DNA of 30,294 nucleotides from Candidatus Acidiferrum sp. (GCA_035511715.1 DATKFA010000116.1:1-30294); one strand, 5' to 3'. Positions 4,053 to 29,167 are shown, counted from the first letter of the stretch. Notes: a model not told the origin generated them from the sequence alone. Made by a program: numbers and translations.

Positions 4053-4512
4053 TTGAGCGAGCACGTGGAAGCACTGGTTTCACATGAGTGCATGTGTCGT
4101 CTACCCCCGGTGACACTGACCCTGTCAGCGTTTGATCAGTTGGACCGTCCTCTCGTTCGATGCTGTCCAACCATCCGAACGACCAGACCGCGGTGTTCTT
4201 GCGTTTGTTATTCGCCGCCGGGCGGCGCAAAACCCCCGCTCTCTTTGCAGTTCTAAACCATTTGCCCCATAGGTTGCAAGTCCTATGGCATTCCGCAAAG
4301 TCACAAAACGCGTCACATCGCGCATGAGACCACGGGCCTATTTACATCAGGACACCTTGCTCATGCGTCCCAAAGTCATTCGGGACAGCCCTCGATCGCG
4401 CGCCCTTCTTCCCTAATGAGATCGAGAACGCGTTCGCATACGCTCCGAAGCACATGACGCCGCAATCGTCCAAGTCCATCGTTTGCCTAACGGCGCCCAC
4501 ACGGAGCTGACA
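4053..4512. promoter_or_regulatory. Divergent intergenic/promoter region with several operator-like inverted and direct repeats
   Basis: Non-coding and more AT-rich than its flanks. CACATG-N4-CATGTG (4081-4096), CTGAC-N3-GTCAG (4116-4128), CGCCGCC-N-GGCGGCG (4213-4227), CCATAGG-N8-CCTATGG (4267-4288), GTCACA-N6-GTCACA direct repeat (4300-4317), GTCCC-N10-GGGAC (4367-4386). Confidence 0.55.
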
Positions 4513-8570: not shown

Positions 8571-9745
8571 TGCTTCGCGTCGCTCAGGTGATCACACGAT
8601 TCATCGCCGGCGCCGGCGGCGTTGCGCTGCGCGGAGCCCTCGCGCTCGACCCAGATCTGTACTCGGTCTCCATCCTTTCGGCCCCTGGCGGACCCCTGCT
8701 GGCGGAGGCGGAGAGGGCCGGCCTCGAGGTCATTCTCCTCGAGCACATGCATCCCGAGATCAACCCGGCCGAGGACTACCGCTGCCTTCACGAGCTCGAA
8801 GAGAAGCTCGGCGACGCCCACTTTGACCTGGTCCATACGCACAGCGCAAAGGCCGGCGCCCTCGGTCGCATCGCTGCTCGACGCGCCCGCGTCCCCGCTG
8901 TGGTCCACACCTTTCATGGGTTTCCGTTTCACAACTTTCAGTCGTGGCCGCTGCGCATGACCTACGTCGAGGTAGAGAAACGGTTGGGCCGCATCACCGA
9001 CCAGTTCCTCGCGGTGGGAGGTGCCGTTGCGGCGCAGGCGATCAGCCTGAAGATCGCGTCGCCCGAGCGCATCCGCACGATCGCCAGCGCGATCGACATC
9101 AACGTCGCACCCGTCTCTCAGGGGGGTCGCATCGAGGCTCGCCGGCTGATGGGTCTGCCGATGGATGCGCCGGTCGTGGGCACGGTCGGAAGGCTGGCCC
9201 CGCAGAAAGCTCCGCAGGACATGGTCGCGGCGATGGAGGCGATCGGCCGGGCCGGTGTGTACTGCGTCTGGATCGGCAGCGGTCCGTTGCTGCGCGACAC
9301 CGCCGACCTGATCCAGCGCAAAGGTCTCGCCGAGCGCTTCCTCCTTCTCGGCGAGCGCAACGACGTCGCCGCGCTCCTCCCGGGCTTCGACGTGTTCGCG
9401 CTGGCGAGCCGCTACGAGGGCATTCCCTGCTCGCTGGTCGAAGCGATCACCTGCGGCATCCCTGTCGTCGCGACTGCCGTCAACGCGGTGCCCGAAGTCG
9501 TCGTTCCGGGTCGTACCGGAATGCTCGTCCCACCCGGCGAGCCAAAGCTCCTGGCCAGGGCGATCGCATTCCTTCTCGATCATCCCGAGCAGGGCGAGCG
9601 GATGGCCGACGCCGCGCGGGTGCTGATCGGCGACCGCTTTCATCCCGCGATCCTCGGCCAGGACCTGGCTTTCACTTACGAGCTGGCTCTGCGCGGCCGG
9701 TCGTCGTCCTTCCGGCGTCCGCTCGGACTGGTTGCGAATGCGTGA
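8570..9745 (+). CDS. GT4-family (GT-B) glycosyltransferase
   Basis: DLVHTHSAKAG, VVHTFHG, VGTVGRLAPQKAP, FLLLGERNDV, SRYEGIPCSLVEA (EX7E), VVATAVNAVPEVV. TGATG overlap with the upstream gene. Confidence 0.93.
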   Translation: MLRVAQVITRFIAGAGGVALRGALALDPDLYSVSILSAPGGPLLAEAERAGLEVILLEHMHPEINPAEDYRCLHELEEKLGDAHFDLVHTHSAKAGALGRIAARRARVPAVVHTFHGFPFHNFQSWPLRMTYVEVEKRLGRITDQFLAVGGAVAAQAISLKIASPERIRTIASAIDINVAPVSQGGRIEARRLMGLPMDAPVVGTVGRLAPQKAPQDMVAAMEAIGRAGVYCVWIGSGPLLRDTADLIQRKGLAERFLLLGERNDVAALLPGFDVFALASRYEGIPCSLVEAITCGIPVVATAVNAVPEVVVPGRTGMLVPPGEPKLLARAIAFLLDHPEQGERMADAARVLIGDRFHPAILGQDLAFTYELALRGRSSSFRRPLGLVANA

Positions 9746-10712
9746 GCGAACGGTCGCGACAAGCGGCGAGCAACTCTCGATAGCGTGCGACCCCGCATGG
9801 GTCGAAGACCTGGTGGACGAGGCCCTGGCGGGAGCGACAGGCTCGAGCGCCGGAACCCCGACGGTCAGCGTCCAGGTCGAGTCTTCACGGAGTGCGTTCG
9901 ACGTCACTGCGTGGGAACCCTTAACTCGTGGCGCGTGGGCCCGCGGCGGCAACGTGGTCATCGAGGATGTGTGCTCTTCCGGCTTCGACCTTGGCCTTCG
10001 CGGTGACATCGACCGCATGGAGTTCGTGCTGCGATGGCGGCCGCGCCTGCGTGGTCACGCCGCCGCGACGCTGCTGAGAACGCGCTTCATCCTTCTCGCG
10101 CGCGCGGTGCTGATCCAGTACCCGGTGCTGTGGCGGGCGACGATTCGCGGCCGGGCGCCGCTGCATGCGGTGGTTTGCACCTCCGGCCGCGCAACGCCAA
10201 TGCTCGCCGGACCGGGTGGGGTCGGCAAGTCGACGCTGCTCAACCTCGAGCTTGCCGCGGGGGGCAGTGCGATCTCGGACAACGTCTGCGTCAGTGACGG
10301 CACCACAGCCTGGGGCCTCGTTGAGCCCCTGCGTGTGGAGGGTGGCTCTGGTCGCCCCGTCACTCACGGCAGGCGGGAGGGTGAGATCAAGCGGCGCGTC
10401 GACTCCCTGGCGCCCGATCTCCTCGTCGCGCTTCACCGCGACAACTCCGAAGACGCGACGGTCCGCTCCTGCGACGGCGCCACGGCGGCGCGGTCCCTGA
10501 TCGCGGGCACGTACATGGCAGGGGAGCTCCGGCGCTTCTGGGGTTTCGCCGCGACGCTGGCCGCGGGCACCGGCCTCGGGCCGGCGCATCCACCGGTCGA
10601 AAGCATCGCCGCCGCCCTCGCATCTCACCTGCCCGCGCTCGAGATCGTCCTTCCTCGTCATCCCGGGGTTCGCCTTGCGGACCTCCTGAATCGCGCTGAG
10701 GTCACCGCATGA
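9738..10712 (+). CDS. HPr-kinase-related P-loop kinase (C-terminal domain type)
   Basis: PLHAVVCTSG followed by LAGPGGVGKSTLLNLELAAGGSAISDN, matching the HPrK pattern LHa...GxSGxGKST...L...G...sDD. ATG 9738 overlaps the GT4 end. Confidence 0.72.
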   Translation: MRERTVATSGEQLSIACDPAWVEDLVDEALAGATGSSAGTPTVSVQVESSRSAFDVTAWEPLTRGAWARGGNVVIEDVCSSGFDLGLRGDIDRMEFVLRWRPRLRGHAAATLLRTRFILLARAVLIQYPVLWRATIRGRAPLHAVVCTSGRATPMLAGPGGVGKSTLLNLELAAGGSAISDNVCVSDGTTAWGLVEPLRVEGGSGRPVTHGRREGEIKRRVDSLAPDLLVALHRDNSEDATVRSCDGATAARSLIAGTYMAGELRRFWGFAATLAAGTGLGPAHPPVESIAAALASHLPALEIVLPRHPGVRLADLLNRAEVTA

Positions 10713-12169
10713 GCACTGAGCTGATAACCGAACCGGATCTCGCACCGAGCCGCTGGTCCCAGGCCCCCACGATGCAGCCGCGCATCTTCGACAGCCCGGA
10801 CCATCCCGTGCGGCTCGACTCGCTGGCGCTGTTGAGGCAACGCACGGAAGGTGTGGACCTGGCCGCTCCGCCGGTCGTGCTGCCCGACTTCTACCACAAG
10901 AAGCTGATGGAGTCGCCCTCGAGCATCGCGGTCGCGACGACCGACACGATCCGCCCGGTGTTCACCAGCGCGGCGCTGAACTGCGGCATGGCGCTGGTCG
11001 GACTCGACATCGAGCGACCCGATGCCGCCGCGCTTACCGATTTCTATGGCCAGATCCGCGCGGCCCTCCCCTATCCCCCGCCCAATCGCGCCGTCTTGAC
11101 CGCCGAAGAGGTGATCCGCTGCGCTGTCGACGGAGCTCGGTTCGCTGTCGACCGCTACGGCCTGGAACCCGCCGAGCTCGACCGCATCGAAGAGGGTGGC
11201 CGCCTCGACGTGGACGTCTACGGGGGTGAGCGCCGCGTCCGACGCGAGCTGTCATGGATGGCGACGCAGCTGGCGCGGATCCGCTTCGGCACAGTCGGGC
11301 CGAGCACCCACTTCGTCGAGTTGCAGCAGGTCGAGGAGATCTTCGACGCCGAAGCCGCGCGGCACCTGGGCGTCGAGCGGGGCCAGCTCACCATGCAGTT
11401 CCACGGCGGGGACGGCGTCTTGAACATCCAGATGGGCGCGCGGTTCGGCCGCCGCCTGGCCGGATCGAAAGCGCTGCGCGCGGTGATGGCGGTGCAGAAG
11501 CCCATGTATCAGCTCGGGTCGGTTCGCTCACGCGGCCAGCTTGCAGAGCGGATGTCCCTCTACTTCTCGGGTGGCTGCCCGCCCATCCCTCGGGAGAGCG
11601 CCGAGGCTGAGCGTGTGATGCTCGCCAACGCGGTGGCGATGAACTACGGCTTCGCCTACCGCCAGGCGACCTACTCCACTCTCCGGCGCCTGGCCGCGAA
11701 GGTTTTCGGCGCGCGGACCAGCATGATCGTGGACTCGCCTCACAACACCATCTACGAGGAGGAGGTCGAGGGTCGCTCCGCCATCGTCCACCGCCACAAC
11801 AGCGCCCGCGCGTTCCCGGGGTCGAGGATGCAGGGCCACCCGGTCTTCGCGACGACAGGCATGCCGCTTCTGCTGCCGGGCACGAACCGCACTTCCTCTT
11901 ATCTATGCGTGGCGGCTGAGGGCGCGGAGCAATCGATTTTCTCGGCGTCCCACGGCACCGGCAGCATCATCACTGACTTCGAGCGCCGCGGCCTGTCGAC
12001 GACCGACCCCGAAGGCCACTCGACGCTGAGATTCCGATACGACGGAAATGGCCCCGTCGTGGTGCCCCACCTCGATGACAAAGGTGTGAACGAAGGTGTG
12101 CGAATCCTCGCGAGCCACAACCTGATACGACCCGTGGCCCGGATGCGGCCCTTCGCGGTCCTGAACTGA
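10709..12169 (+). CDS. Divergent RtcB-family (GTP/Mn2+-dependent ligase fold) protein
   Basis: All RtcB motifs occur in order: LPD, (A)LNCGM, GTVGPSTHFVELQQVEEIFD..AA, QFHGG, AMNYGFAYRQ, DSPHN, VHRHNSARAFP, LLPGT..TSSYL, FSASHGTG, VARMRP. ATGA overlap with the kinase gene. Confidence 0.88.
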   Translation: MSTELITEPDLAPSRWSQAPTMQPRIFDSPDHPVRLDSLALLRQRTEGVDLAAPPVVLPDFYHKKLMESPSSIAVATTDTIRPVFTSAALNCGMALVGLDIERPDAAALTDFYGQIRAALPYPPPNRAVLTAEEVIRCAVDGARFAVDRYGLEPAELDRIEEGGRLDVDVYGGERRVRRELSWMATQLARIRFGTVGPSTHFVELQQVEEIFDAEAARHLGVERGQLTMQFHGGDGVLNIQMGARFGRRLAGSKALRAVMAVQKPMYQLGSVRSRGQLAERMSLYFSGGCPPIPRESAEAERVMLANAVAMNYGFAYRQATYSTLRRLAAKVFGARTSMIVDSPHNTIYEEEVEGRSAIVHRHNSARAFPGSRMQGHPVFATTGMPLLLPGTNRTSSYLCVAAEGAEQSIFSASHGTGSIITDFERRGLSTTDPEGHSTLRFRYDGNGPVVVPHLDDKGVNEGVRILASHNLIRPVARMRPFAVLN

Positions 12170-12348
12170 TGCAGCTACCCATTCGCAGCCGCGATTCGAC
12201 GTCGCTGAGGTACCGCCAGAGGATGATCCGCGGTCGTCACAGGCGCGCCGCCATTCGCGAGTTTGCGGGCATGGCGTTGTGGTCGGTCGGCTTGCTGGCG
12301 GGCGGCGTGGTCGCGGTGGCGCTGGCACTGGGCCTGACCGGCAGGTGA
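12169..12348 (+). CDS. 59-aa Arg-rich single-TM microprotein (below the ORF-track size cutoff)
   Basis: MQLPIRSRDSTSLRYRQRMIRGRHRRAAIREFAGMALWSVGLLAGGVVAVALALGLTGR*. Its ATG overlaps the RtcB-like stop (TGATG) and its TGA overlaps the formyltransferase GTG (GTGA), so it exactly fills the gap. Confidence 0.7.
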   Translation: MQLPIRSRDSTSLRYRQRMIRGRHRRAAIREFAGMALWSVGLLAGGVVAVALALGLTGR

Positions 12349-13298
12349 GGATCGGCTGGATCGGATTCCACATGGAGGGGGTGCCGGCGCTTCGCGAGGT
12401 CCTCGGTCAGGGGTATCCCGTAATGGGCATTGTCACGCTGACCCAGCACGCGGCCGACCGGCGCAGCGGCGCCGCCGACTACACGAGCATCGGCCGGGAG
12501 TTCTGCGTCCCGGTATTCGAGGTGGACGACATCAACGGCGAGGTTGCGCTGGGGGTCCTTTCCGAGCTGGATCTCGACCTCGGGTTCTGCATCGGCTGGA
12601 CCCAGCTCATCGGCTCGGCGGCGAGAGACCTCTTCCGCATTGGCGTCGTCGGCGCGCACGCGTCGCTCCTCCCCCACAACCGCGGCCGGGCCCCCGTCAA
12701 CTGGACCCTCATCCGCGGCGAGAAGGAAACGGGCAACACGCTGCAGTGGCTGGGTGACTCGGTCGACGGCGGGGACGTCATCGACCAGAGGCGCATCCCG
12801 GTCACTCCCTACGACACCTGCGAGTCCATCTACGAGCGGGTCGCCGAGTCGAACCGCGACATGATCCTCGAGCTGCTGCCCAGGCTTCTGAACGGAGAGA
12901 GGCCTGCGACGCCCCAGGTCCACTCCGATGAAGAGCTCCTCCCGAGGCGCCGACCCGCGGACGGCGAGGTCGATTGGTCCGCGGACAGCTCTCGGGTTTA
13001 CGACTTCGTGCGCGCGCTGACGCGACCTTATCCGGGGGCCTTCGGGTGGTTCGATGAGCGGCGCTGGACGATCTGGTCCTGCTCTCTCCCCCCCACCGCG
13101 ATGACCGCCGAGGGGAAGCCGGGCGATGTCATCGGGGCCGTGGTGAGCCCGGTCGACGAAGCCTGCGGCCAGACCGTGCGGTGCGGCCAGGGCGCCATCA
13201 CGCTGCTCGAGCTCGAGGACGAAAGCGGCCTGGTCCTGAAGGGCCGCGAGCTGAGTGATCAGCGCTGGCAGGGCCGGAGGTGGCGCGATGGCGCATGA
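12345..13298 (+). CDS. Sugar N-formyltransferase-like protein (formyl_trans N + C domains)
   Basis: Likely GTG start (MRIGWIGFH). GAHASLLPHNRGRAPVNWTLIRGEKETGNT...DGGDVI; C-terminal RRPADGEVDW...DFVRALTRPYPGAF. Confidence 0.88.
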   Translation: MRIGWIGFHMEGVPALREVLGQGYPVMGIVTLTQHAADRRSGAADYTSIGREFCVPVFEVDDINGEVALGVLSELDLDLGFCIGWTQLIGSAARDLFRIGVVGAHASLLPHNRGRAPVNWTLIRGEKETGNTLQWLGDSVDGGDVIDQRRIPVTPYDTCESIYERVAESNRDMILELLPRLLNGERPATPQVHSDEELLPRRRPADGEVDWSADSSRVYDFVRALTRPYPGAFGWFDERRWTIWSCSLPPTAMTAEGKPGDVIGAVVSPVDEACGQTVRCGQGAITLLELEDESGLVLKGRELSDQRWQGRRWRDGA

Positions 13299-13974
13299 GC
13301 CCAAGCGCGTGCTGGTCATCGCGGCTCATCCGGATGATGAGCTTCTCGGATGCGGCGGAACTGTTGCCCGTCACGTCCAGGTCGGTGACACGGTCACCTC
13401 GATCATCGTCTGCGAGGGCGAATCCCTTCGCTACGGGCCCAACGGGGTCGGCCAGCGGTCGCACATCCAGGCCGCCGCGGACCGTCTTGGGGTGAAGGAC
13501 GTGCGGCTGCTCGGCTTCGCCGACCAGCGTCTCGACACGATCAACCTCACCGACGTCATCGGGTGCATCGAGCCGATCGTCCGTGAGATCCGCCCGCAGA
13601 TCGTGTATGGCCAGCACGGCGGCGACGTGAATCGCGACCATCACCTCGTCTTCCAGGCGCTGCTCGTCGCCACGCGGCCGACCGAGGACTTCATCGAGTC
13701 GGTCTACGCATTCGACACGGCCAGCAGCACAGAGTGGGCTTACCCGCGGACCTTCATCCCCGACACCTGGATCGACATCACCGACACGCTCGAGACGAAG
13801 CTCGAGGCGATGGCGTGCTACGAGAGCGAGATGCGCGCCTATCCCCATCCGCGCTCACTTCAGGCGCTCAGCTACCGCGCCCACAGCTGGGGCGTGCAGG
13901 CGTGCCTCGACGCGGCGGAGGTCTTCATGACCGTCCGGAGAGTCGTGCGACCGGGGAACGGATTCCTGGGCTAG
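13288..13974 (+). CDS. PIG-L/LmbE-family N-acetylhexosamine deacetylase
   Basis: VLVIAAHPDDELLGCGGT, DVNRDH, DITDTLETKLEAMACYESE, AEVF. Confidence 0.92.
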   Translation: MAHEPKRVLVIAAHPDDELLGCGGTVARHVQVGDTVTSIIVCEGESLRYGPNGVGQRSHIQAAADRLGVKDVRLLGFADQRLDTINLTDVIGCIEPIVREIRPQIVYGQHGGDVNRDHHLVFQALLVATRPTEDFIESVYAFDTASSTEWAYPRTFIPDTWIDITDTLETKLEAMACYESEMRAYPHPRSLQALSYRAHSWGVQACLDAAEVFMTVRRVVRPGNGFLG

Positions 13975-13978
13975 CGCC

Positions 13979-14947
13979 CTACCGCCCTTGAAAGTAGTGG
14001 GCGTTCTCGTACGCCAGCTCGGCGACGTTGCCCGGCACATCGTCCAGCTGCCGTCCGATGCTGCCGTAGGTGCAGGCGTTGCCCGTGAAGTTCCACGAGA
14101 AGACCAGGTATCCGACCAGGTGCGTGGCGAGGTTCTGCCAGTGGGTCATCTGCGTCCGAAGATCGGCGCTGCTTGGCATCTCGTAGAAGCAGTCCTGGAA
14201 ATCCTGGAGCACGCCGATGTATCCGTTGATGTGCGCGGCTTCGATGCGCGTGATGTTCGCGTCGAGCACGTTGCCGAAGTCGCAGGGCTTGCGGCTCTTG
14301 GGCTCGGCCGAGAAATCAAGGCCGTTGCCGAAGCTGCACGGGTAGAGGTCGAAGCCGAGCACGTCGACAGCACCTTTCCAGGCCGCGTAGTCGACGGGCC
14401 CATGATCCCAGTCCTGGATCAGGGTGAAGGTCTTCGCCTGCGGGTCGAGCTGATGGATCAGCGCCGTCCGAGCGGCGAACGCGACAGGCGCGTGCGGGCA
14501 GGACGACAGGAGCGGCTCGTCGGCCAGGTAGTACATCAGGATGTCGGGGCTGCCCTTGATGGCGTCCACCATCTGCGTCACCTGGGCGTCGGACTGGTCC
14601 CAGAAGCAGCCTGGCTTGTTCCAACCGCCGAGCCAGACGATGGCCTTGAGCCCGGTGCCGGCCAGGGCCGCGATCGCGCCGGGGTACGGCTCGGCCTGCA
14701 CGGCGTTGAAACCGGCCGCCTTCATGTTCGACACGCCGGTCCCGAAGAAGCAGCCGTTGTCGTTGCTGTAACCCGGCGCCTGGCACGTCGTGTCGCGGCC
14801 GAATGTCCCGCGAACGAACAACGGCAACGCGGATCGGACCGGAATGCTCGTGCCGGCGGGCGGAGTGGATGTCGAGCACGCGCATGACCAGAGAACACAG
14901 AACAGAAGCGGCGAAACCAGGCGAGCCAGCCGCAAAGCGCTGGCCAC
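13979..14947 (-). CDS. Putative secreted/lipoprotein with a GH-like (beta/alpha)8 domain; start uncertain (GTG 14947 or 14968)
   Basis: Hydrophobic LARLVSPLLFCVLWSCAC followed by S/T/P, then MKAAGFNA, GLKAIVW, YYLADEP, DVLGFDLYPC, VLQDF, HWQN, GYLVFSW. Homologous by eye to the second domain of the 1-4052 protein. Confidence 0.8.
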   Translation of the reverse strand: MASALRLARLVSPLLFCVLWSCACSTSTPPAGTSIPVRSALPLFVRGTFGRDTTCQAPGYSNDNGCFFGTGVSNMKAAGFNAVQAEPYPGAIAALAGTGLKAIVWLGGWNKPGCFWDQSDAQVTQMVDAIKGSPDILMYYLADEPLLSSCPHAPVAFAARTALIHQLDPQAKTFTLIQDWDHGPVDYAAWKGAVDVLGFDLYPCSFGNGLDFSAEPKSRKPCDFGNVLDANITRIEAAHINGYIGVLQDFQDCFYEMPSSADLRTQMTHWQNLATHLVGYLVFSWNFTGNACTYGSIGRQLDDVPGNVAELAYENAHYFQGR

Positions 14948-15236
14948 GCTAGCAGCCGGCTGATGCACCCGCAAGGCTTCTGGGACTTTCTGGACGCATG
15001 CGCCCGGACGAGCTTGGGAATCACTCCCAGGCTGCTGGGACACTCGTCCTAGCGAATCCTCCTCTTCCCATTGGATTCGAGGGTCGTGTGAGGCAGCATC
15101 GAACTTCGAGGATGCTGCAGGCCGGGAGGGCAAAACGGGGCGCGACTGGGCCTGCACACGAGGGCGCGGGCAGGCGCGCCCAGTGCTCGGCCGGCCGGCC
15201 TACACGCAACCCGTGGCAGTGATCGGGTCAACCGCG

Positions 15237-16493
15237 ATGGGCCGGCGCTGGACGCCGGTGGCGAGAGGGTTGGCTGCGCCTGGCGTGCCGTGGGTCCTGC
15301 TTGCTCCCATCCTCGCGGGGGTGGCGCTGATCCCGCTGCTGAGGCCCAACGGACCAGGCAACACATCGGTACCCGACGTCCCGATCGCCCTGAGCATCCT
15401 GGCCGCGCTGGTGTGGGCCGGCGTCACCGGCCAGGAGCTGCGACTTCCCTACGCGCTGGCTGTGGGCTTCACCATGCTGGGCGGCGCCGTCGCTTCGATC
15501 GCCGGGCCGCTGCCGGGCAACGGTCTCCTGGCGGTGGTGCAGGACCTCTTCCTGCTCGCGTGGTGCGGGGTCATCGTCAACGTCGCGCGCCAGGCCGACG
15601 CCTTCAGGTGGCTGATGCGGGCCTGGGCGTGGAGCGCGGTCGGCTGGGCCCTGATCCTGATTGGCGCGGTCGCCACCGGAAACCTCGCACTCGCCGGAAT
15701 CACCGACCGGACCGGCGTGCGGGCCTCGCTCACGTTCGGCGATCCGAACTACGCCGCCAGCTACTTCTTCGTCGCGTTCATGATCGTCTTGGCCGCCCAG
15801 ATTCCTCGGCGCCGAATCCTTCGCATCGGCGCGTGCGGGATTCTCCTCGCCGCGCTTGCCCTGACCGGATCCAACGGCGGCATCCTTTCCTGCGCGGTCG
15901 GCACGGCGGTGGTCATGGTCGGATTCGTAGCCAAGCGCTGGGGACGCACGCAGCTCCTGGCCGTTGTGTGCATCGCCGGGGCGATCGGCATCGTCGGCTT
16001 GATGGTCGTGCAGACCCTTCCCATCGAAGACTGGGCGAACGCGACGGGCGTGCCCTTGCTCCGGGACTCGATCGGCCGAAGCTCGCAGAGCGCTCAGGAA
16101 CGCGAGTGGCTCGTCCAGGAAACCCTTGGCCTCTTCGCGCAAGGCGTGCCCTGGGGGCTCGGACCGAACACGACCAAGCCGCTGCTTCAGTACCAGCTCG
16201 CGCCTTACGCCTATCAGACACATGACGATTACATCGAAGCGATCGTCGAGCGCGGCGTCCTGGGCGCGATTGGTCTCTTGCTCTTGATCGGGTCGCTGCT
16301 GGTACGCACCTGGACGATGGTCACGATGCCGATGCGGCGCGAGTTCGCGGCGGTGATTCCCAACCGGGCGCCGCTTGTCGGTGCCGCGCTGGGACTCGCG
16401 GTGTCTGCGTCCTATTACCAGATCCTCCATTTCCGCCACGTCTGGACATTCTTCGCCGTGATCGCGGCGCTCTACGTGTGGGGCCGCGAATGA
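15237..16493 (+). CDS. Wzy polymerase / O-antigen ligase-like multi-TM protein (Wzy_C type); start could be GTG 15213
   Basis: About 10-12 hydrophobic segments; R.SLTFGDPNYAA, ALTGSNGG, WGLGP, THDDYIEAIVERGVLG (HNxY..E.G-like motif). Confidence 0.85.
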   Translation: MGRRWTPVARGLAAPGVPWVLLAPILAGVALIPLLRPNGPGNTSVPDVPIALSILAALVWAGVTGQELRLPYALAVGFTMLGGAVASIAGPLPGNGLLAVVQDLFLLAWCGVIVNVARQADAFRWLMRAWAWSAVGWALILIGAVATGNLALAGITDRTGVRASLTFGDPNYAASYFFVAFMIVLAAQIPRRRILRIGACGILLAALALTGSNGGILSCAVGTAVVMVGFVAKRWGRTQLLAVVCIAGAIGIVGLMVVQTLPIEDWANATGVPLLRDSIGRSSQSAQEREWLVQETLGLFAQGVPWGLGPNTTKPLLQYQLAPYAYQTHDDYIEAIVERGVLGAIGLLLLIGSLLVRTWTMVTMPMRREFAAVIPNRAPLVGAALGLAVSASYYQILHFRHVWTFFAVIAALYVWGRE

Positions 16494-18424
16494 ACGCGCT
16501 AAGGCGGTTTGCTCAACGCGCACGTGGTCCATTCGCGGAAAACGTGATCGCGCTCTTTGGCGCGATGGCCGCGCTCGGAATCGCAACGCTGTGGGTCGGT
16601 CGGATCGCGGGACCGGTCGGAGTCGGCAACTACGCGATGCTGCGAATTCTCCCGTGGCTGGTGGCGGTGGTCGTCTCCGGAGGCCTGGCCGGCTCGCTGG
16701 CTTACTTCCTCTCGGGCCCGACGCGAGACCGCAAAGACGCGCCGTCGACCGTGGTCGCGATCGCGTTGGCAAGCGGCACCGCGGGCGCGCTTCTGTGGCT
16801 CGTCGCATCACCGCTGCTCCGGACCGTCTTCTTGCGCCAGGTCGGCCTTGGTCTTGTCGCATGGGTTGCGTTGAGGGTTGCGCTGCGCCTTTTCGTCATC
16901 ACCGGAAAAGCCGCTGCTCAGGGCGTCGGAGACCTTCGGGGCAGCAACCTGACGATCTTCCTCGAGGAGCTGATGTTCCTTCCCGCATACGCCGTTATGC
17001 AGCTCGCGGGTCTCGGAGGCGACGCGGCGGTGATCGGCGCGCTGCTGACGGCGGACACAGCGACCGCAGCGCTCGCGTGGGGGCGTCTTTTGCGGCGGGG
17101 CTTCGTGCGTGAAGCCACCGCGCCCTCGTTCGAGCTTGCGCGTCGCATGTACGGCTTCGGAATGCGCGGCCAGATCGGAAGCCTCATCCAGCTGCTCAAC
17201 CTCCGCTTCAACTTCATCTTTCTCGGTGCTCTCGCGGGTCCGGCAGCTCTAGGCCTCTACGCGGTCGCCGCCAAGTACGCCGAATTCCTCCGCCTGGTGC
17301 CGATTGCCGCGAACTGGGTTCTCTATCCGCGGTTCGCCAGGTCCGACCCGGCTGCGGCCGCGAGAACCTCGCGGCGAATGATCCTTCGCGCGGGTGCCGT
17401 CACGGCCACTGGCGCGGTGCCCCTTGCGCTGGGCGCGGTGCTCGTGATCCCGCTGCTTTTCGGAAGGGCGTTTGGGCCGGCGGTTCTGCCCGCGCAGATC
17501 CTCCTGGTCGGGCTCGCGGCCGAAGGGGTCGGAGGTGTGGTGACGGCCTTTCTATTCGGCCGCGGCCGCCCCGGCCTCAACTCGCTTGCGGCAGGCGCAG
17601 GGGTCACCGTGACGGTTGCCCTCGACGTGGTGCTGATTCCCCGCTATGGCGCGGTCGGCGCCGCCATTGCCTCGTCGATCGCGTACCTCACGACGACTTT
17701 CTGCCTCGTGCTGTGGTACCTGCACGTGGTCGGGCCGACTTCGCGTGCCGACCCCATCATCCCGGGCCTGGACAGCATCGCGCCCGACCCGGCACGCCGC
17801 ACCCTCGACATCGCTGTGGCGCTCCTTGGCCTGGTCGTCCTGGCCCCGGTGATGATGGTGGTTCTGATAGGGGCGCGCCTCAGCACGGGAGGCTCGGCCA
17901 TCTACCGCCAGACGCGCGTCGGGGAGGGCGGCCGCCCGTTCACGATGTACAAGATCCGCAGCATGCGGACCGGTCAGGCAGGACCGGAGGTGACTGGGCC
18001 GGCCGACCGGCGCATCACCCGGCTGGGCGCCGCGCTCCGCATGACGAGCCTCGACGAGGTGCCGCAGCTGGTCAACGTGCTGCGCGGCGAGATGACCCTG
18101 GTCGGTCCTCGCCCCGAGACTGTCGCCCTTGCCCTTCGCTATCCGGCCGAGTACCAGGGTGTGTTCGCGTACCGACCGGGGCTCACGGGTCCCGTGCATG
18201 TTCAGCTGCAAGACGCGGTGCCAGAGAACGTGGACGACGTCGAGGCGTTCTACATAAGCGAGCTCCTGCCGTATCGCACGAAGATCGACCTCGCCTACCT
18301 GACGAACCCGTCTCTCGCCGCGACCGTCGGCCTCATCTGGCAGACCGTCGCCTATGTGATGTCGCGTGTGGTCAGCAAAGCGGTTTCGAGATCACGCCGC
18401 CGCGCGGCCGCGCCGGTGACCTGA
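16490..18424 (+). CDS. Fusion protein: Wzx/MOP-type flippase (N-terminal ~410 aa) + monotopic phosphoglycosyl transferase (Bac_transf, C-terminal)
   Basis: Single open frame. Flippase part: [52 protein letters not shown] part: [72 protein letters not shown] overlap with the upstream gene. Confidence 0.9.
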
Positions 18425-18461
18425 GAAACGCGGGTGATCTTGACCGTGACATTTGACTCGC

Positions 18462-18490
18462 TTGACGCACGGATGGCCCGTCCTTACGTT
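18462..18490 (+). promoter_or_regulatory. Candidate sigma70-type promoter for the large FN3 protein
   Basis: TTGACG (18462-18467) - 17 nt - TACGTT (18485-18490), 36 nt upstream of ATG 18527. Confidence 0.5.
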
Positions 18491-18526
18491 TGCCTCGCAG
18501 CTATCCGAAGGAACAGTACAGGGCTC

Positions 18527-23575: not shown

Positions 23576-23668
23576 TTCAAAGTCCGGCTCGATCCTGGGT
23601 CTGGTGTCCCAGCCCCGACGATCCCCACTATGGGAACGACGTCGCATCGAACATAAGCTCGAGGTGGC

Positions 23669-25501
23669 TTGTGCGGCATCATCGGCTACCTCGGCAACCG
23701 TGAGGCGACTCCGGTGCTGCTCGACGGCCTCCGCAGCCTGGAGTACCGCGGCTACGACTCGGCCGGGATCGCGGTCCTGGATCGCACCGCACGCTTGACC
23801 ACCACGACCAAGAGTGAGACGAACGTGGCCAGGCTTGCCGAAACAATCGGCGATCGGATCCCTGAGGGCCGGCTGGGCATCGGCCACACGCGTTGGGCGA
23901 CTCACGGCAAGCCGAACCTCACCAACGCACATCCCCACTCTGACTGCAGCGGCCGGATCACGGTCGTGCACAACGGCATCATCGAGAACTTCGCCGAGCT
24001 CAAAGCAGCGCTGATCGCAGGCGGCCACCGATTCGTGTCCGACACCGACACCGAGGTGATCCCGCACCTGATCGAGGACAGCTACAAGGGGGATCTGCTC
24101 AGCGCGGTAAGGGCGGCGCTCAAGCGCGTCCGGGGTGCCTACGCGCTCGCCATCTTCTCGCTGGATGAGCCAGACCTTCTCATCGGCGCCCGTCTCAACG
24201 CGCCATTGGTGATCGGCGTCGGAGAGGACGAATTCTTCATTGCCTCGGATATCACGGCCGTCATCCCGTACACGAAGAAGGTGCTCGTCCTGGGCGAGGG
24301 TGAGATCGCAGCGGTCACGCCGCTTGGGCCAACGGTCTCGACGATCGACGGAACTCCAGTGTCGAGCAAGCTCATCCATGTCGACTGGGATGTGAGCCAG
24401 GCGCAGAAGGGTGGCTACCACCACTTCATGCAGAAGGAGATCCACGAGACCCCGGACGCCGTGGCCAACGCCCTGCGCGGCAGGCTGACGAGCGACGGCA
24501 AGGTCGATCTCCAGGATTGCTCGTTGACCGATCGCGAGCTGCGACGCGTCCGCAACGTGCTGCTCCTGGGTATGGGCACGTCGCTGCACGCCGCGATGAT
24601 CGGCCAGTACCTGATCGAGGACTGGCTCGGCCTTCCCGCTCGCGCCGAGGACGCTTCCGAATTTCGCTACCGCCGGCCGACGATCGGGCGGGAAACGCTC
24701 ACAGTCGCCCTGACGCAGTCAGGCGAGACCGCCGACACCATCGTCGCCCTCCGCCAGGCGAAGGCTCAGGGCTCGCTCACGCTGGCGATCACGAACGTAG
24801 TCGCCAGCACGGCGGCCAGGGACAGCGACGGCACCATCTACCTGCACGCCGGTCCCGAGATAGGCGTCGCCTCATCGAAGACTTTCGTCAGCCACCTCGT
24901 CGCCCTGGCACTCGTTGCAACCCGCATCGGCGTCGCCCAGGAAAGGATCGCCCTGGAAAGGCGGGAAGAGCTGACGCAGACACTTCGCGAGCTCCCCGAG
25001 ATGCTGCGCGGAATCCTCGTACGCGAGGCCGAGATCGAGCGGCTGGCGAAGCGCTACTCGACGTTCGAGGACTTCATGTTCGTGGGTCGAGGCATCAGCT
25101 ATCCCGTCGCGCTCGAGGGCGCGTTGAAGCTCAAGGAGATCTCCTACGTCCATGCGGAAGGGACGTCGGCGGGCGCGCTCAAACACGGACCCATCGCGCT
25201 TCTCGAAAAGACATTCCCCGTCATCGCCATTTGCACCGACAGCGCCACCACCGACAAGATGGCGGGCAACGTCCACGAGGTGGTGGCCCGCGATGCACCG
25301 GTCCTGGCTCTGGTCACGGAAGGAGACCGCCGCCTCGACGGTGTCGCCACGGATGTGATCTCGATCCCACCTGGCGACGAGGTCGCGGTGGCGATCATGA
25401 ACACGGTCGTGCTTCAGCTCTTCGCGTACTATGTCGCGGTCGAGCTCGGTCGCAACATCGACCAGCCACGCAACCTCGCCAAAAGCGTGACCGTCGAGTA
25501 A
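23669..25501 (+). CDS. glmS: Glutamine--fructose-6-phosphate aminotransferase (isomerizing)
   Basis: GTG start, (M)CGIIGY N-terminal Cys nucleophile, LEYRGYDSAG, GIGHTRWATHG, HNGIIEN, TQSGETADT, EGALKLKEISY.HAEG, KHGPIAL, C-terminal NIDQPRNLAKSVTVE. Confidence 0.97.
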   Translation: MCGIIGYLGNREATPVLLDGLRSLEYRGYDSAGIAVLDRTARLTTTTKSETNVARLAETIGDRIPEGRLGIGHTRWATHGKPNLTNAHPHSDCSGRITVVHNGIIENFAELKAALIAGGHRFVSDTDTEVIPHLIEDSYKGDLLSAVRAALKRVRGAYALAIFSLDEPDLLIGARLNAPLVIGVGEDEFFIASDITAVIPYTKKVLVLGEGEIAAVTPLGPTVSTIDGTPVSSKLIHVDWDVSQAQKGGYHHFMQKEIHETPDAVANALRGRLTSDGKVDLQDCSLTDRELRRVRNVLLLGMGTSLHAAMIGQYLIEDWLGLPARAEDASEFRYRRPTIGRETLTVALTQSGETADTIVALRQAKAQGSLTLAITNVVASTAARDSDGTIYLHAGPEIGVASSKTFVSHLVALALVATRIGVAQERIALERREELTQTLRELPEMLRGILVREAEIERLAKRYSTFEDFMFVGRGISYPVALEGALKLKEISYVHAEGTSAGALKHGPIALLEKTFPVIAICTDSATTDKMAGNVHEVVARDAPVLALVTEGDRRLDGVATDVISIPPGDEVAVAIMNTVVLQLFAYYVAVELGRNIDQPRNLAKSVTVE

Positions 25502-25537
25502 GCGCAGCGGCCCTGACGAACCGAGGAATTCGCTGAT

Positions 25538-26827
25538 ATGCGGCTCCGCCTGAACTTCGTCTTCAGACTCGTCGTCGCGCTGCTGATCGCTGCGTGCGGG
25601 TCGGCGGGCGCGAACGTGGCCCCATCGCGCGCTGCTGCGCAGCCTCACATCCTCGTGGTGCTCATGGAGAACCACAGCTACCCGGAGGTGGTCGGCAATC
25701 CCTCAATGCCGTTCCTGAACGGGCTCGTCGCGTCCAACGGGTCGGTGAGCACCACGGACCTGAGCCATCCGAGCCTTCCGAACTACCTCGGCCTCGTCGG
25801 CGGCTCCATCTACAACAATCCGGCGGACACCACCCCGCAGGACGGCACTTACCCGGGTCCGCAGCTCACCGATGAGCTGGCCGCGGCCGGCGTTGGATGG
25901 AAGGCGTACATGCAGGACATGCCGGCGCCCTGCGACCTCACCGACCAGTTCGGGCCCGGCGGCTACGACGTCAATCACGACCCGTTCATGTACTTCAACA
26001 CCGTTCGCGCCAACCCGGCACAGTGCAATCGCATCGTGCCCTATCCGCAGCTGACCGCGGACCTCAACGCCGGTGGCGCTCCTCCTTTTCTGTGGGTCTC
26101 ACCAAACACGACCAACGACATGCATGACGGCACGTACCAGCAGGGAGACGCCTTTCTGAAAGCGCTCGTCACCCAGGTCGAGGCATCCAGCTGGTGGAGC
26201 TCCTCCGCGAGAATCGTCATCACCTTCGACGAAGGAGAGACCACCGAGCAGGTGCTGACCGTGGTGGTCGGCTCCGCCCACGGCAGTGCGGCCACCGGGG
26301 GCAACCACTACGGGACTCTGAGGGGCCTCGAAGAGGCCTACGGGGTCGGGTTGCTCGGACACTCGGCCGACGGAAACGTCGGGGACCTCTTGCCACTGCT
26401 CACCGGAGCCTCTGCTCCACCCACCGCTCCACCGACCGCCCCACCCACCACTTCGCCTTCGGCTCCCGCTTCCCCGCCGTCCCAATCTCCACCGTCGCAG
26501 TCTCCAGCGTCACAGTCGCCACCGTCGCGGGCCGTTGCATCCCCGTCCTCTCCGCCCCACTCCCCCACATCAGCGCTCCAGTCGCCATCGTCGATTCCGT
26601 CTGACTCGGCGGCGCAGTCACCCTCGTCGGCCGACCAGCCACCGATCGGACCAAGCCCCTTCCTGTCAGGCGCCGCGCCGACCCGTTCGGTTCTTGTCGC
26701 GTACACGGTCGTTGTCCGCGACGGCGGACCGCAGTTCCTGCTTGCGGGCGCGGGCGTGCTGGCGTGCATCCTCCTGCTGATGCTGGGGTTCGGGCCCGAC
26801 ATCCGTCGAATCCTGCGCCGACGCTAG
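25538..26827 (+). CDS. Surface phosphoesterase (SapM/AcpA-like, PF04185-type) with a Ser/Pro linker and C-terminal TM anchor
   Basis: Signal/lipobox (LLIAAC), PHILVVLMENHSY, SHPSLPNY, NDMHDG, RGLEEAYGVGLLGHSAD, S/P-rich stalk, FLLAGAGVLACILLLMLGFG followed by DIRRILRRR*. Confidence 0.88.
   Translation: MRLRLNFVFRLVVALLIAACGSAGANVAPSRAAAQPHILVVLMENHSYPEVVGNPSMPFLNGLVASNGSVSTTDLSHPSLPNYLGLVGGSIYNNPADTTPQDGTYPGPQLTDELAAAGVGWKAYMQDMPAPCDLTDQFGPGGYDVNHDPFMYFNTVRANPAQCNRIVPYPQLTADLNAGGAPPFLWVSPNTTNDMHDGTYQQGDAFLKALVTQVEASSWWSSSARIVITFDEGETTEQVLTVVVGSAHGSAATGGNHYGTLRGLEEAYGVGLLGHSADGNVGDLLPLLTGASAPPTAPPTAPPTTSPSAPASPPSQSPPSQSPASQSPPSRAVASPSSPPHSPTSALQSPSSIPSDSAAQSPSSADQPPIGPSPFLSGAAPTRSVLVAYTVVVRDGGPQFLLAGAGVLACILLLMLGFGPDIRRILRRR
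26410..26650 (+). repeat. Ser/Pro/Thr-rich stalk including (SQSP[P/A])n and (PPTA)n units
   Basis: APPTAPPTAPPTTSPSAPASPPSQSPPSQSPASQSPPS... Confidence 0.8.
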
Positions 26828-26833
26828 CGTCGC

Positions 26834-28252
26834 TCAAGCAGCGAGGCGCTTGAAAAGCTCCCAGTGGTGGCGGGCAAACTCCGGATGGTCCGCCGTGGCG
26901 GCGATCTCCGCCAATCCGGCCAGCGCGACGTACCGCCAGGCTTGCGGCTCGCCGCCGATGCGCTTCAGGCTCTCCTGGAGAAAGCCGCGAAATGCCTCCG
27001 GAAACCAACCCTGGCCGTTGATCGCGTAGGTGATGCCGGCTCCCCACGGTCCGGCTAAGAGACCGGGGTGTCCAAACACCGGGCGGCCGGCTCTCGAGTG
27101 CCGATCGAGGTAGAGCGAGTAGCTCAAGGCGAAGCGCGCCACGTCACGCAAGGGCTCGCCCGAGGGCGAGGCAGACTCCCAATCGACGACCCCCGCGATC
27201 TGGCCTCCCTCGACGAGCAGGTTGCCGAACCAGAAGTCGCCGTGCACCGCGGTGCGCGGCGTACGCATTTCCCCAAGCCGCTGCGAGATCGCCCTCAGGG
27301 CGGCGAGGCCACTCGCCATATGCGCGTCGTCGTCAAACCGCTGCCCGATCGAGCTGTCCAGCCCGGCGCCGAGATCGCACGCCGAGACATCGCCCGCGGT
27401 CGCCGCCTGGAACGAGCCCAGCCATCGCTCGACGATGGCGAAATCGCCCCGGACTTTCGCGGGCGAGGCAAGGTGCCGCCAGGCGTGATAGGACGTCGAC
27501 ATGGGTGTCCCGGTCATCGCAGCGGTGGTGAGCACCGAACCCGGCGCTCCGGCGACGGCGATCACCTGGGGCACCGTGTCAGCCAGATCGGACGTCAGCC
27601 GCCGGCGCAGGGTCTCGAGGACCTTTCTTTCCGCCTGTACGATCCGGCTCGCCACATCCGTCGTCGGCACCTTGGCGGCCACGACCGGCTCTGATTCCCC
27701 GTGCGGGAGCAACAGGACGGTCAGCTTGGCATTCGGATCCTTGGATAGAGCGAGCACGATCGAATCCATGCCGGGAACGGCCAGCAGGCTTCCTGGAGCC
27801 TGTGCGCGGCCACCATGGTCGAGAGTTCGGGCCACAACAAGCCGCTTGCGTGCGAGCAACCGCAGCGCACGATGACCGCCGAACCGGTTGGCGGCCTTCC
27901 ACGCGCTGACCGCTGCCGACGCGACCGCCCCGCCGCGCGGGATTGTCAGGAGCCGGCCGATAAAGAAACGAGCAGCGCTCGGAGTATCGGCCACATACTG
28001 CGCCGGCGGCTCGAGCGACGGAATCGTCAGGAGCCGTGCCAGGACCTGCAAGTGCGCCTGCTTGACGACTGGCCCAAGGCTTCTCCTGACCGCGGAGGCC
28101 GATCCGCTCAGCAGCACGATCGTCCCGGGCGGAAGTTCCCGAAGCTCGCCGACGAGACGCCACTGTTCGGCACGCGTCGAGGGGAGCTCCGCGTGCCGCG
28201 CGGACGATTCGGTCAAGCTTCTCCACGGCTCCAGAATTCCGGCGGACGTCAT
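26834..28252 (-). CDS. APH/choline-kinase-fold phosphotransferase with an uncharacterised N-terminal extension
   Basis: Likely ATG 28252 (MTSAGILEPW). VAAKVP...AE (kinase Lys/Glu), VHGDFWFGNLLV...GVVDWE (Brenner motif + DWE), G.PL.DVARFAL. Confidence 0.85.
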   Translation of the reverse strand: MTSAGILEPWRSLTESSARHAELPSTRAEQWRLVGELRELPPGTIVLLSGSASAVRRSLGPVVKQAHLQVLARLLTIPSLEPPAQYVADTPSAARFFIGRLLTIPRGGAVASAAVSAWKAANRFGGHRALRLLARKRLVVARTLDHGGRAQAPGSLLAVPGMDSIVLALSKDPNAKLTVLLLPHGESEPVVAAKVPTTDVASRIVQAERKVLETLRRRLTSDLADTVPQVIAVAGAPGSVLTTAAMTGTPMSTSYHAWRHLASPAKVRGDFAIVERWLGSFQAATAGDVSACDLGAGLDSSIGQRFDDDAHMASGLAALRAISQRLGEMRTPRTAVHGDFWFGNLLVEGGQIAGVVDWESASPSGEPLRDVARFALSYSLYLDRHSRAGRPVFGHPGLLAGPWGAGITYAINGQGWFPEAFRGFLQESLKRIGGEPQAWRYVALAGLAEIAATADHPEFARHHWELFKRLAA

Positions 28253-28302
28253 CGATCGGTCGCCCGCTCCGGCCGGCGGCCGGCGGCCGCGCCGGACGCT
28301 CT

Positions 28303-29166: not shown

Positions 29167-29167
29167 G

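Follow-up and report, generated by a model that had tools for sequence, protein, structure and literature searches.

An RtcB-like protein and two putative kinases in a conserved Wzx/Wzy-type glycan locus: possible reuse of RNA-ligase chemistry

To our knowledge, RtcB is known solely as an RNA/DNA end-joining enzyme, and a literature search found no publication tying RtcB to glycans. What, then, is an RtcB-like protein doing between the genes of a bacterial glycan locus? The locus lies in a 30,294 nucleotide stretch of DNA from Candidatus Acidiferrum sp. (GCA_035511715.1, DATKFA010000116.1:1-30294), here called the window. It makes up an entire contig of a MAG from soil, and the closest matches of that MAG bear the name Dormibacterota.

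The glycan locus and its genes

The window carries a Wzx/Wzy-type glycan locus. A first-pass annotation had described it as holding an HPr kinase-like and an APH-type kinase, an RtcB-like protein and two phosphoesterases. All are found in the window, the second phosphoesterase lying outside positions 9738–28252, and all of the genes named earlier were verified at their coordinates. Counts out of 50 refer to related loci flanked on each side by 8 kb or more. The features are:

3..4064, minus strand: accessory large surface protein with a PF04185 domain, a middle domain and 8 PKD repeats, its frame open where the contig ends
4483..5832, plus strand: Wzz/PCP-like chain-length determinant (weak Wzz and EpsF matches; 46/50 loci)
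5817..7046, plus strand: DegT/PseC-type sugar aminotransferase (PF01041, E 3e-105; 48/50 loci)
7047..8570, plus strand: PglF/PseB-type UDP-GlcNAc 4,6-dehydratase (Polysacc_synt_2, E 1.6e-100; PseB model 183 bits; 44/50 loci)
8570..9745, plus strand: GT4 glycosyltransferase (Glycos_transf_1 and Glyco_transf_4; 50/50 loci)
9738..10712, plus strand: P-loop protein of PEPCK/HPr-kinase fold, about 325 aa, cytoplasmic (Walker A; structure model; 50/50 loci)
10709..12169, plus strand: non-canonical RtcB-like enzyme, 486 aa, cytoplasmic (PF01139, E 8e-42, 144.3 bits)
12279..13298, plus strand: formyltransferase, accessory (Formyl_trans_N and Formyl_trans_C; 23/50 loci)
13255..13974, plus strand: PIG-L family de-N-acetylase, accessory (PF02585, E 1e-21; 18/50 loci)
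13979..15157, minus strand: protein without Pfam match, accessory, paralogous to the PKD protein's middle domain (matches in 23/50 loci)
15183..16493, plus strand: Wzy_C polymerase or ligase (PF04932; 49/50 loci)
16478..18424, plus strand: Wzx-type flippase fused to a Bac_transf phosphoglycosyl transferase (Polysacc_synt_3 and Bac_transf; flippase in 47/50 loci)
25538..26827, plus strand: anchored PF04185 phosphoesterase, accessory (70.5 bits; homologue in 16/50 loci)
26834..28252, minus strand: APH/choline-kinase-fold kinase, 472 aa (PF01636, 40.3 bits)

The Wzx/Wzy assembly set is complete in the window, with Bac_transf together with Polysacc_synt_3, Wzy_C, and Wzz/EpsF-like matches, and is kept in 46–49 of the 50 related loci. 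The best explanation is that this conserved, Wzx/Wzy-type cassette builds a glycan based on a 4-amino-4,6-dideoxy-HexNAc-type sugar. Its fixed parts include three soluble cytoplasmic enzymes, the PEPCK/HPrK-fold P-loop phosphotransferase, the non-canonical RtcB-like protein and the APH-fold kinase, none of which has a transmembrane segment or signal peptide. The P-loop gene overlaps the stop codon of the GT4 gene and, via ATGA, the start of the RtcB-like gene.

The phosphoesterases had been proposed as members of the same module, which did not hold. PF04185 is present in only 16/50 loci and PF04185 or Metallophos in 33/50, leaving 17/50 with neither within 10 kb; the phosphoesterases are accessory rather than core. 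Both PF04185 proteins of the window have hydrophobic N-terminal segments. That of 25538–26827 includes a Cys and is accompanied by a C-terminal transmembrane segment, while in the protein at 3–4064 the PF04185 domain forms the N-terminal part. In the 50 full loci, homologues of 13979–15157 and the PKD protein often share one ORF.

Co-inheritance, gene order and fusions

Co-inheritance was assessed in 402 genomes, made up of a phylum sample (n=251) and a Terrabacter family sample (n=151). In the phylum sample the P-loop, RtcB-like and APH genes occur in the same 2 genomes, and in the family sample in 12, 13 and 12 genomes, respectively. The trio shares one presence/absence pattern, in the same 14/402 genomes, and the association is far beyond chance. 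The expectation that four families would co-occur across genomes is thus borne out for the two kinases and the RtcB-like protein, as parts of a glycan cassette, and not for the phosphoesterases. The whole nine-gene cassette is co-inherited, therefore linkage alone cannot mark the trio as one pathway.

The cassette is present in at least 253 species, including cultured Terrabacter, Dactylosporangium and Nonomuraea. Gene order is shuffled among lineages and the gene set retained. The P-loop and GT4 genes each accompany the RtcB-like gene in 50/50 loci, and no gene neighbours the P-loop gene more constantly than GT4, which adjoins it in 93% of loci. Wzy_C adjoins the APH gene in 95% and the flippase gene in 94%. 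The APH gene is present in 43/50 loci, those without it including close relatives of the window, and adjoins the RtcB-like gene in 84%; in the window the two are more than 14 kb apart. The locus was found only in soil DNA runs, none of the RNA runs holding it.

Within the cassette, the P-loop and RtcB-like proteins are the deeper conserved pair. They are fused in one lineage (P0163, with 4 independent full-length copies and an hhalign probability of 99.1%) and their genes are also adjacent in clusters at 31–39% identity. No APH homologue was detected in 6 more distant RtcB-like loci, several on short contigs, which keep the P-loop gene and a flippase neighbour. A Wzx flippase is in turn fused to the RtcB-like protein in P0193 (2 copies), and flippase and RtcB-like genes adjoin in two further loci (L087 and L089). 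Recurrence of the P0163 fusion was established through cluster members. Together, these natural fusions tie the P-loop and RtcB-like proteins to each other and locate them at the membrane. The complex prediction for the P-loop and RtcB-like proteins scored 0.01, a value that says nothing either way on binding.

Sequence and structural features of the three enzymes

The P-loop protein has the Walker A sequence GPGGVGKST and no Pfam match, including to Hpr_kinase_C or PEPCK. Its structure model (pLDDT 93.8) resembles PEPCK 1ii2 over its whole length (Z 14.5 over 267 residues), and the modelled residues 140–326 resemble HPrK/P structures 1ko7, 1knx, 1jb1 and 3tqf (Z 12.8–13.3, rmsd 2.8–3.2 Å). 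A PDB profile search gave only an E value of 0.015, to 1jb1, and a distant orthologue has a weak Hpr_kinase_C match under the cut-off (17.8 bits). The invariant motifs DN, EP.R, HGR and TY..GELRR.W are peculiar to this protein. No HPr or PTS genes are present among all window genes in Pfam and NCBIfam scans. Arg replaces the Walker Lys in 15/78 loci, a change noted in one clade, so the protein may not be an active kinase in every locus.

The APH-fold kinase is well above the PF01636 cut-off of 23.2 bits. Across 22 orthologues there is no variation in the catalytic K194 and E208, the motif H337-G338-D339 with N344, or the metal-binding D357. A pseudokinase reading was rejected for this clade on the strength of these invariant catalytic residues. 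Its core matches small-molecule kinases at Z values of about 15–17, LicA (4r77) scoring Z 15.3 and the glycan kinase WaaP Z 11.8. The N-terminal segment of about 150 aa is a separate 148-aa ORF in one related locus (L004). An archease-like role for this domain was considered and rejected, there being no Pfam or structural match and only a poor model, in which much of the 80–160 region scores under pLDDT 60.

The RtcB-like protein exceeds the PF01139 cut-off of 27 bits by a wide margin and matches Pyrococcus horikoshii RtcB (PH1602, 1uc2) at 98 bits. It is the sole RtcB-family gene found in the MAG of the window, which is 77% complete. All 83 orthologues carry D60, N91, C92, H201, E204, H232, H345 and H415 unchanged. 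Among them are the nucleophile H415 (P. horikoshii His404), the M1 metal ligands, and the equivalents of P. horikoshii H203 and E206.

In the P. horikoshii enzyme, M1 is held by Cys98, His234 and His329 and M2 by Asp95, Cys98 and His203, with Asp95 touching the beta and gamma phosphates of GTP (PMC9745838). Asp95 is replaced by Ser or Ala in 82/83 of the RtcB-like orthologues and by Gly in one, leaving the binuclear metal site incomplete. The nucleotidylation step of the RtcB-like protein may therefore differ or be weak. Arg238 and Arg190 of the P. horikoshii enzyme grip phosphates of the 5'-OH strand (PMC8051266). The former is Gly in 83/83 orthologues and the latter aligns with Leu188. Likewise, K351 is His, R408 is Ser, Thr, Ala or Met, and Asn202 is kept in 54/83 and Thr in 29/83. 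Canonical RtcB paralogues in the cassette-bearing Dactylosporangium and Nonomuraea genomes keep Asp95, Arg238, K351 and R408, and the Dactylosporangium copy also keeps Arg190. Residue conservation thus supports a clade that retains the nucleotidyl-His machinery and has lost the RNA-strand contacts. At least 75 RtcB-like clusters (50% identity) are without most of the RNA-type residues, and those with context examined are in surface-glycan loci.

A proposed role in phosphodiester formation, and comparison with known systems

An RtcB-like protein that has no RNA-gripping residues and is always in the company of two kinases suggests that RNA-ligase chemistry may have been redeployed to introduce phosphate linkages in a glycan. 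The preferred reading, to which somewhat less than an even chance is given, is phosphate activation followed by phosphodiester formation, carried out by the P-loop and RtcB-like proteins on the lipid-linked repeat unit before it is flipped. The P-loop enzyme would phosphorylate a hydroxyl on this unit at the inner membrane face, just before flipping. The conserved His of the RtcB-like protein would be charged with NMP, which would then be passed to the sugar phosphate to give a glycan-P-P-nucleoside anhydride. Attack on this anhydride by a hydroxyl would form the phosphodiester and release NMP. The hydroxyl might belong to a small alcohol or to a different sugar, or else to the same sugar, which would yield a cyclic phosphate. 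A second phosphorylation would come from the APH-fold kinase of the cassette, and the anchored phosphoesterases may provide optional extracellular trimming or recycling. The wider proposal, that this non-canonical RtcB branch and its PEPCK/HPrK-fold kinase are glycan-building enzymes which NMP-activate a sugar-bound phosphate and seal it to a hydroxyl beside the flippase, is put forward more tentatively.

The division of labour suggested by the first-pass annotation was different. There, the APH-fold kinase would act like LicA to produce a small phospho-alcohol, X-P, from which the RtcB-like protein would make NDP-X and transfer P-X to a glycan sugar in place of LicC and LicD, with editing by secreted phosphoesterases. 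The APH core is indeed closer to small-molecule kinases such as LicA than to WaaP, its gene frequently adjoins that of the RtcB-like protein, and a phosphoesterase of some family is near most loci. The absence of classical LicC/LicD/TagF-type enzymes, also expected on this view, was confirmed in the window and they are not recurrent in related loci. A six-frame search of the contig of the window gave no NTP_transferase or NTP_transf_3 match, and neither LicD nor TagF-type enzymes were found in the whole, 77% complete MAG. LicD (PF04991) is in 0/5 cassette-bearing genomes, the positive control being found in L. lactis, and TagF-type genes are in Nonomuraea alone of these, on other contigs. NTP_transferase is present in 7/50 related loci. 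These form one group, in which its neighbours are an RmlB-like dehydratase, DegT and a stand-alone Bac_transf. It therefore looks like a precursor enzyme and was rejected as a LicC equivalent. Against the LicA-like scheme, the deep partner of the RtcB-like protein is the P-loop protein, a fused and universal companion that the scheme leaves without a role, the APH gene is undetected in the 6 distant loci, and the phosphoesterases are not core. The APH-fold kinase as provider of X-P is not favoured, and the scheme as a whole is considered unlikely.

A more doubtful explanation is that the RtcB-like protein only makes a nucleotide-activated donor through a covalent His-NMP, like GalT, the donor being used by the GT4 enzyme or another transferase and the ligase step being unused. 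Retention of the nucleotidyl-His core alongside changes in the strand-joining residues (R238, and Thr for N202 in some orthologues), the constant presence of GT4 beside the P-loop gene, and the lack of a classical NTP_transferase in 43/50 loci would all fit. However, UDP-GlcNAc-derived precursors require no extra nucleotidyltransferase, Asn202 is retained in the majority of orthologues, and the fusion and adjacency of flippase and RtcB-like protein favour a lipid-linked membrane substrate over a soluble precursor.

Serines in proteins or peptides are the targets of HPrK and its lasso-peptide relatives. The trio could on this basis be a regulatory or protein-modifying module, in which the HPrK-like enzyme puts a phosphate on some protein of the assembly machinery and the RtcB-like protein nucleotidylates or ligates the protein-bound phosphate, gating export. 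The flippase fusion would also suit a regulator, and the clade with Arg for the Walker Lys suggests that binding without catalysis could suffice. This is improbable given that the RtcB-like catalytic residues are strictly conserved (83/83), the whole-length PEPCK-like fold and many invariant arginines suit a small or phosphorylated ligand, and a conserved candidate target protein was not found. An ordinary RNA-repair RtcB lying by chance in a glycan locus would be consistent with PF01139 membership, the intact His nucleophile and the single RtcB-family gene of the MAG, but is highly improbable: the contacts to the RNA 5'-OH strand are lost, the gene is strictly co-inherited with glycan genes across about 250 species, the protein is found fused to both flippase and P-loop protein, and it coexists with a canonical RtcB in Dactylosporangium and Nonomuraea.

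If the wider proposal is true, phosphodiester or cyclic-phosphate glycans would be made without a CDP-alcohol, LicD, TagF or Stealth enzyme. Should the RtcB-like proteins act on sugar phosphates, bacteria would have a previously undescribed enzymatic way of forming phosphodiester links in their cell-surface polymers, and a well-studied fold would gain a new activity. The annotation "tRNA-splicing ligase RtcB" would be corrected for more than 1000 metagenomic proteins.

The canonical RtcB 3'-phosphate/5'-OH RNA ligases (P. horikoshii PH1602, E. coli RtcB, human RTCB) have fold and family in common with the RtcB-like protein, and share with it the nucleophile H404, the M1 ligands C98, H234 and H329, and H203, E206 and N330. 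They differ from it at Asp95 (Ser/Ala), Arg238 (Gly), Arg190 (Leu) and Lys351 (His), and at Arg408 and Arg412, both lost from the RtcB-like protein. The RtcB-like protein is never accompanied here by RtcA, RtcR or archease, but rather by Wzx/Wzy glycan cassettes and the P-loop partner. HPr kinase/phosphorylase and PEP carboxykinase are like the P-loop protein in Walker A and fold, its C-terminal domain resembling HPrK/P and the whole protein PEPCK. Unlike them, it has no Pfam signature or nearby HPr/PTS, has motifs of its own, and carries the Walker Arg in one clade.

WaaP and WaaY of the LPS core and the WbdD kinase domain add phosphate to a sugar while the glycan is lipid-linked or nascent. 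Like the APH-fold kinase they have a protein-kinase/APH fold and are on the cytoplasmic side, but the fold similarity is only distant and they have no RtcB-like or PEPCK-fold partner. The LicA-LicC-LicD phosphocholine pathway shares an APH/choline-kinase-fold kinase with the cassette, and a phosphodiester on a cytoplasmically made glycan is the outcome proposed here also. In contrast, the cassette has no LicC-type nucleotidyltransferase or LicD, activation and transfer being proposed for the RtcB-like His-NMP enzyme, and its deeper kinase partner is the P-loop protein rather than the counterpart of LicA.

Gene content of the window and of related loci

The window is one entire contig (30.3 kb) of a MAG that was obtained from soil and is 77% complete (2.4 Mb in 444 contigs); its nearest protein matches carry names indicative of Candidatus Dormibacterota. 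The gene map generated from Pfam and NCBIfam scans is given below; the gene coordinates proposed in the first-pass annotation were all correct.

Genes of the window, with strand where recorded
3-4064 (-), PF04185 phosphoesterase with a further domain and 8 PKD repeats
4483-5832, Wzz/PCP-like protein
5817-7046, DegT/PseC-type aminotransferase
7047-8570, PglF/PseB-type 4,6-dehydratase
8570-9745, GT4 glycosyltransferase
9738-10712, P-loop protein, without a Pfam hit
10709-12169, RtcB-like protein
12169-12348 (+), 59-aa ORF in the gap between the RtcB-like and formyltransferase genes
12279-13298, formyltransferase
13255-13974, PIG-L deacetylase
13979-15157 (-), 392-aa protein, domain without a Pfam family
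15183-16493, Wzy_C protein
16478-18424 (+), flippase fused to Bac_transf
18434-23575 (+), 1713-aa fn3/RGI-lyase-repeat protein
23669-25501, GlmS
25538-26827, PF04185 phosphoesterase
26834-28252 (-), APH-fold kinase
28303-29211 (-), BY-kinase-like protein
29168-30115 (-), chain-length determinant

One frame at 16478-18424 (+) encodes both a flippase of the Wzx type and a phosphoglycosyl transferase (Bac_transf); Bac_transf is a stand-alone gene in 20 of 50 related loci and in locus L086 is joined to a dehydratase instead. The 59-aa ORF has a basic N-terminal half and a single hydrophobic helix. Its counterpart in L008 is also directly 3' of the RtcB-like gene (51% identity, E 6e-10); L002, L003 and L011 give weaker matches, and none was found in more distant lineages. 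The 392-aa protein and the middle domain (approximately residues 300-600) of the phosphoesterase-PKD protein at 3-4064 (-) are paralogous. The opposite-strand ORF lying over the gene of the 392-aa protein, 13988-14887, is a shadow. The 1713-aa surface protein, located between the flippase and GlmS, contains fn3, RGI-lyase beta-sheet and CbhB-like repeats; homologues are present in only 13 of 50 loci.

When surveyed with one genome per species, the RtcB-like subfamily is encoded in 253 species genomes of the Dormibacterota and many Actinomycetota, with strains of Terrabacter, Dactylosporangium and Nonomuraea being cultured carriers. Fifty loci have at least 8 kb of flanking sequence on both sides. 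All 50 contain the P-loop and GT4 genes, followed by Wzy (49), DegT (48), flippase (47), Wzz-like (46), PglF-like (44) and APH (43), while formyltransferase (23), PIG-L (18) and PF04185 phosphoesterase (16) are found in fewer. Loci without APH include close relatives of the window, and the APH gene of the window itself is more than 14 kb from the RtcB-like gene. Gene order varies among lineages, with two blocks remaining stable: P-loop with GT4, neighbours in 93% of loci, and RtcB-like, APH, Wzy and flippase (84–95%). Only 53% of loci have the P-loop and RtcB-like genes side by side.

The P-loop, RtcB-like and APH genes (the trio) share a genome-wide pattern. In the phylum sample of 251 genomes, exactly two carry the RtcB-like gene and the same two carry P-loop and APH; in the Terrabacter family sample of 151 genomes, the RtcB-like gene is found in 12, P-loop in 13 and APH in 12, with all three in 12 genomes, although the sampled genomes are related to one another and these counts are not independent events. 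The genome with the additional P-loop match is fragmented, and the match falls on a short contig. In the genus of the window, three genomes (G200, G240 and G248), each 94–95% complete, lack the whole trio. The cassette is accessory and patchily distributed, and has probably moved from lineage to lineage. The trio proteins lack TM segments and signal peptides; hydrophobic anchor segments are present in the phosphoesterases of the window. The trio is a co-inherited cytoplasmic set within the Wzx/Wzy cassette.

Phosphoesterases and classical transferases

The first-pass annotation placed the phosphoesterases in one module with the kinases and the RtcB-like protein. Co-occurrence holds for the trio but does not extend to the phosphoesterases, which are accessory. 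Metallophos-family genes were found by iterated search in approximately 23 of 50 loci; taking this approximate count, 33 loci have either PF04185 or Metallophos and 17 have neither, cultured Terrabacter strains being among the latter. Two unrelated phosphoesterase families recur near the cassette. In the window one PF04185 domain forms a single protein with PKD repeats, and in L004 and L005 stand-alone Metallophos genes adjoin large beta-helix and PKD proteins. This recurrence is suggestive of a phosphate-bearing glycan.

The reported lack of classical LicC/LicD-type enzymes was borne out. Six-frame searches of the window contig gave no match to NTP_transferase or NTP_transf_3, and neither LicD nor TagF-type genes were found in the 77% complete MAG. 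LicD was not found in five cassette-bearing genomes, and among the cassette-bearing genomes checked, TagF-type genes are present only in Nonomuraea, on contigs other than that of the cassette. A classical NTP_transferase is found in 7 of the 50 full loci, all from the group in which Arg replaces the Walker Lys of the P-loop protein. Its neighbours are a short dehydratase, DegT and a stand-alone Bac_transf, a context as expected of a precursor enzyme.

The Walker A Lys is replaced by Arg (GxGRST) in 15 of 78 loci, mostly from MAGs labelled Gaiellaceae/Thermoleophilia (L004, L005, L019, L020, L026, L031, L035, L038, L039, L041, L042, L044, L045, L082 and L085). Classical NTP_transferase is present in 11 of these 15 loci versus none of the 63 Lys-type loci. 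The Arg group may represent a single evolutionary event.

Fusions in the wider RtcB-like branch

At a stringency of E ≤ 1e-30, 130 clusters were recovered from a library clustered at 50% identity. The best 150 matches included 85 full-length representatives, of which 50 combine an intact His core with the complete signature (Asp95 and Arg238 both missing, His at 351; P. horikoshii numbering) and 25 have variants of this signature. Only one is of the canonical type, at the tail of the list.

Cluster representative P0163 (885 aa) has a P-loop domain joined to an RtcB-like domain. Its P-loop part matches the P-loop profile with an hhalign probability of 99.1% (E 4e-19) and has the Walker A GLPGCGKTT; the gene adjoins a flippase in a glycan locus. 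There are four independent full-length copies of this fusion, one in a named Chloroflexota MAG. In P0193 (996 aa) a Wzx flippase is joined to the RtcB-like domain, in a locus with DegT, a PglF-Bac_transf fusion, Wzy and GT4; this fusion is represented by two independent copies, of which one comes from a Candidatus Eisenbacteria MAG. The P-loop and RtcB-like proteins are coupled, being fused in one lineage, and the RtcB-like protein is tied to the flippase by fusion and adjacency.

In the flippase-RtcB-like fusion L086:10001-12991, Asp aligns at the site of Cys98, the residue that bridges both metals. The following gene (L086:13000-14076) belongs to a further type of phosphodiester-forming enzyme, the CDP-alcohol phosphotransferases (PF01066, 30.7 bits), and a P-loop homologue was not detected in this locus.

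More distantly, L089 (cluster at 39% identity) has the order P-loop, methyltransferase, RtcB-like, flippase, and in L091 (31% identity) the P-loop gene is directly upstream of the RtcB-like gene. L089:1143-10378 also contains DXP-synthase/transketolase-like, FMN-dependent dehydrogenase and radical SAM/SPASM genes, a chemical context different from that of the window cassette. No APH homologue was detected in six distant RtcB-like loci, several on short contigs. The deeper unit is therefore the pair of P-loop and RtcB-like genes next to a flippase, to which APH may have been added in this cassette only.

Proposed function and comparison with known enzymes

The P-loop protein has the Walker A GPGGVGKST. 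Folded with 26 orthologues (pLDDT 93.8, pTM 0.92), the model as a whole aligns with PEP carboxykinase 1ii2 over 267 residues (Z 14.5), and residues 140–326 superpose on the HPr kinase/phosphorylases 1ko7, 1knx and 1jb1 (Z approximately 13, rmsd 2.8–3.2 Å). Judged from these superpositions, the earlier label 'HPrK-like' is right at the level of fold. The HPr kinase sequence signature is nevertheless lacking, and neither HPr nor PTS genes lie nearby.

Every catalytic residue of the APH-fold kinase is invariant in the orthologue alignment, and for this clade a pseudokinase reading does not hold. Small-molecule kinases match its core at Z approximately 15–17, namely aminoglycoside, homoserine and choline kinases, LicA (Z 15.3) and NahK (Z 14.4); the value for WaaP is 11.8. 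The N-terminal domain of approximately 150 residues has been fused or split, since other lineages encode it as a 148-aa ORF of its own. The domain in the window (within 26834-28678, -) and the ORF L004:11460-11906 are 31% identical (E 2e-8), and the position of the domain is always between the RtcB-like protein and the kinase core.

In the proposed route, the P-loop enzyme would phosphorylate the lipid-linked repeat unit, the RtcB-like protein would activate this phosphate with an NMP, and a hydroxyl would then seal the activated phosphate into a phosphodiester, with APH contributing a second phosphorylation. The polarity first envisaged, from X-P through NDP-X to the glycan, may apply instead. 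The RtcB-like protein may also act as a donor synthase only, or the module may be regulatory. Literature searches found no paper linking RtcB to glycan synthesis.

The RtcB-like protein matches PF01139 at 144 bits and P. horikoshii RtcB at 98 bits. Identical in 83 orthologues are D60, N91, C92 (P. horikoshii C98), H201 (H203), E204 (E206), H232 (H234), H345 (H329) and H415 (H404, the GMP acceptor). Asp95, which coordinates metal M2, the metal in contact with the beta and gamma phosphates of GTP (PMC9745838), is replaced by Ser or Ala in these orthologues. Arg238 is Gly and Lys351 is His in 83 of 83, Arg408 is Ser, Thr, Ala or Met, Arg412 is variable, and Leu188 aligns with Arg190. In the published structures the 5'-OH strand is held at its phosphodiesters by Arg238 and Arg190; in the E. 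coli enzyme, mutating the residue that corresponds to Arg238 makes sealing 200-fold slower (PMC8051266). The RtcB-like protein is very unlikely to serve ordinary RNA repair; in Dactylosporangium and Nonomuraea a canonical RtcB that retains D95, R238, K351, R408 and R412 is present alongside the RtcB-like paralogue. Compared with canonical RtcB, the alignments indicate that the RtcB-like protein has kept the nucleotidyl-His core but has lost the RNA-strand contacts.
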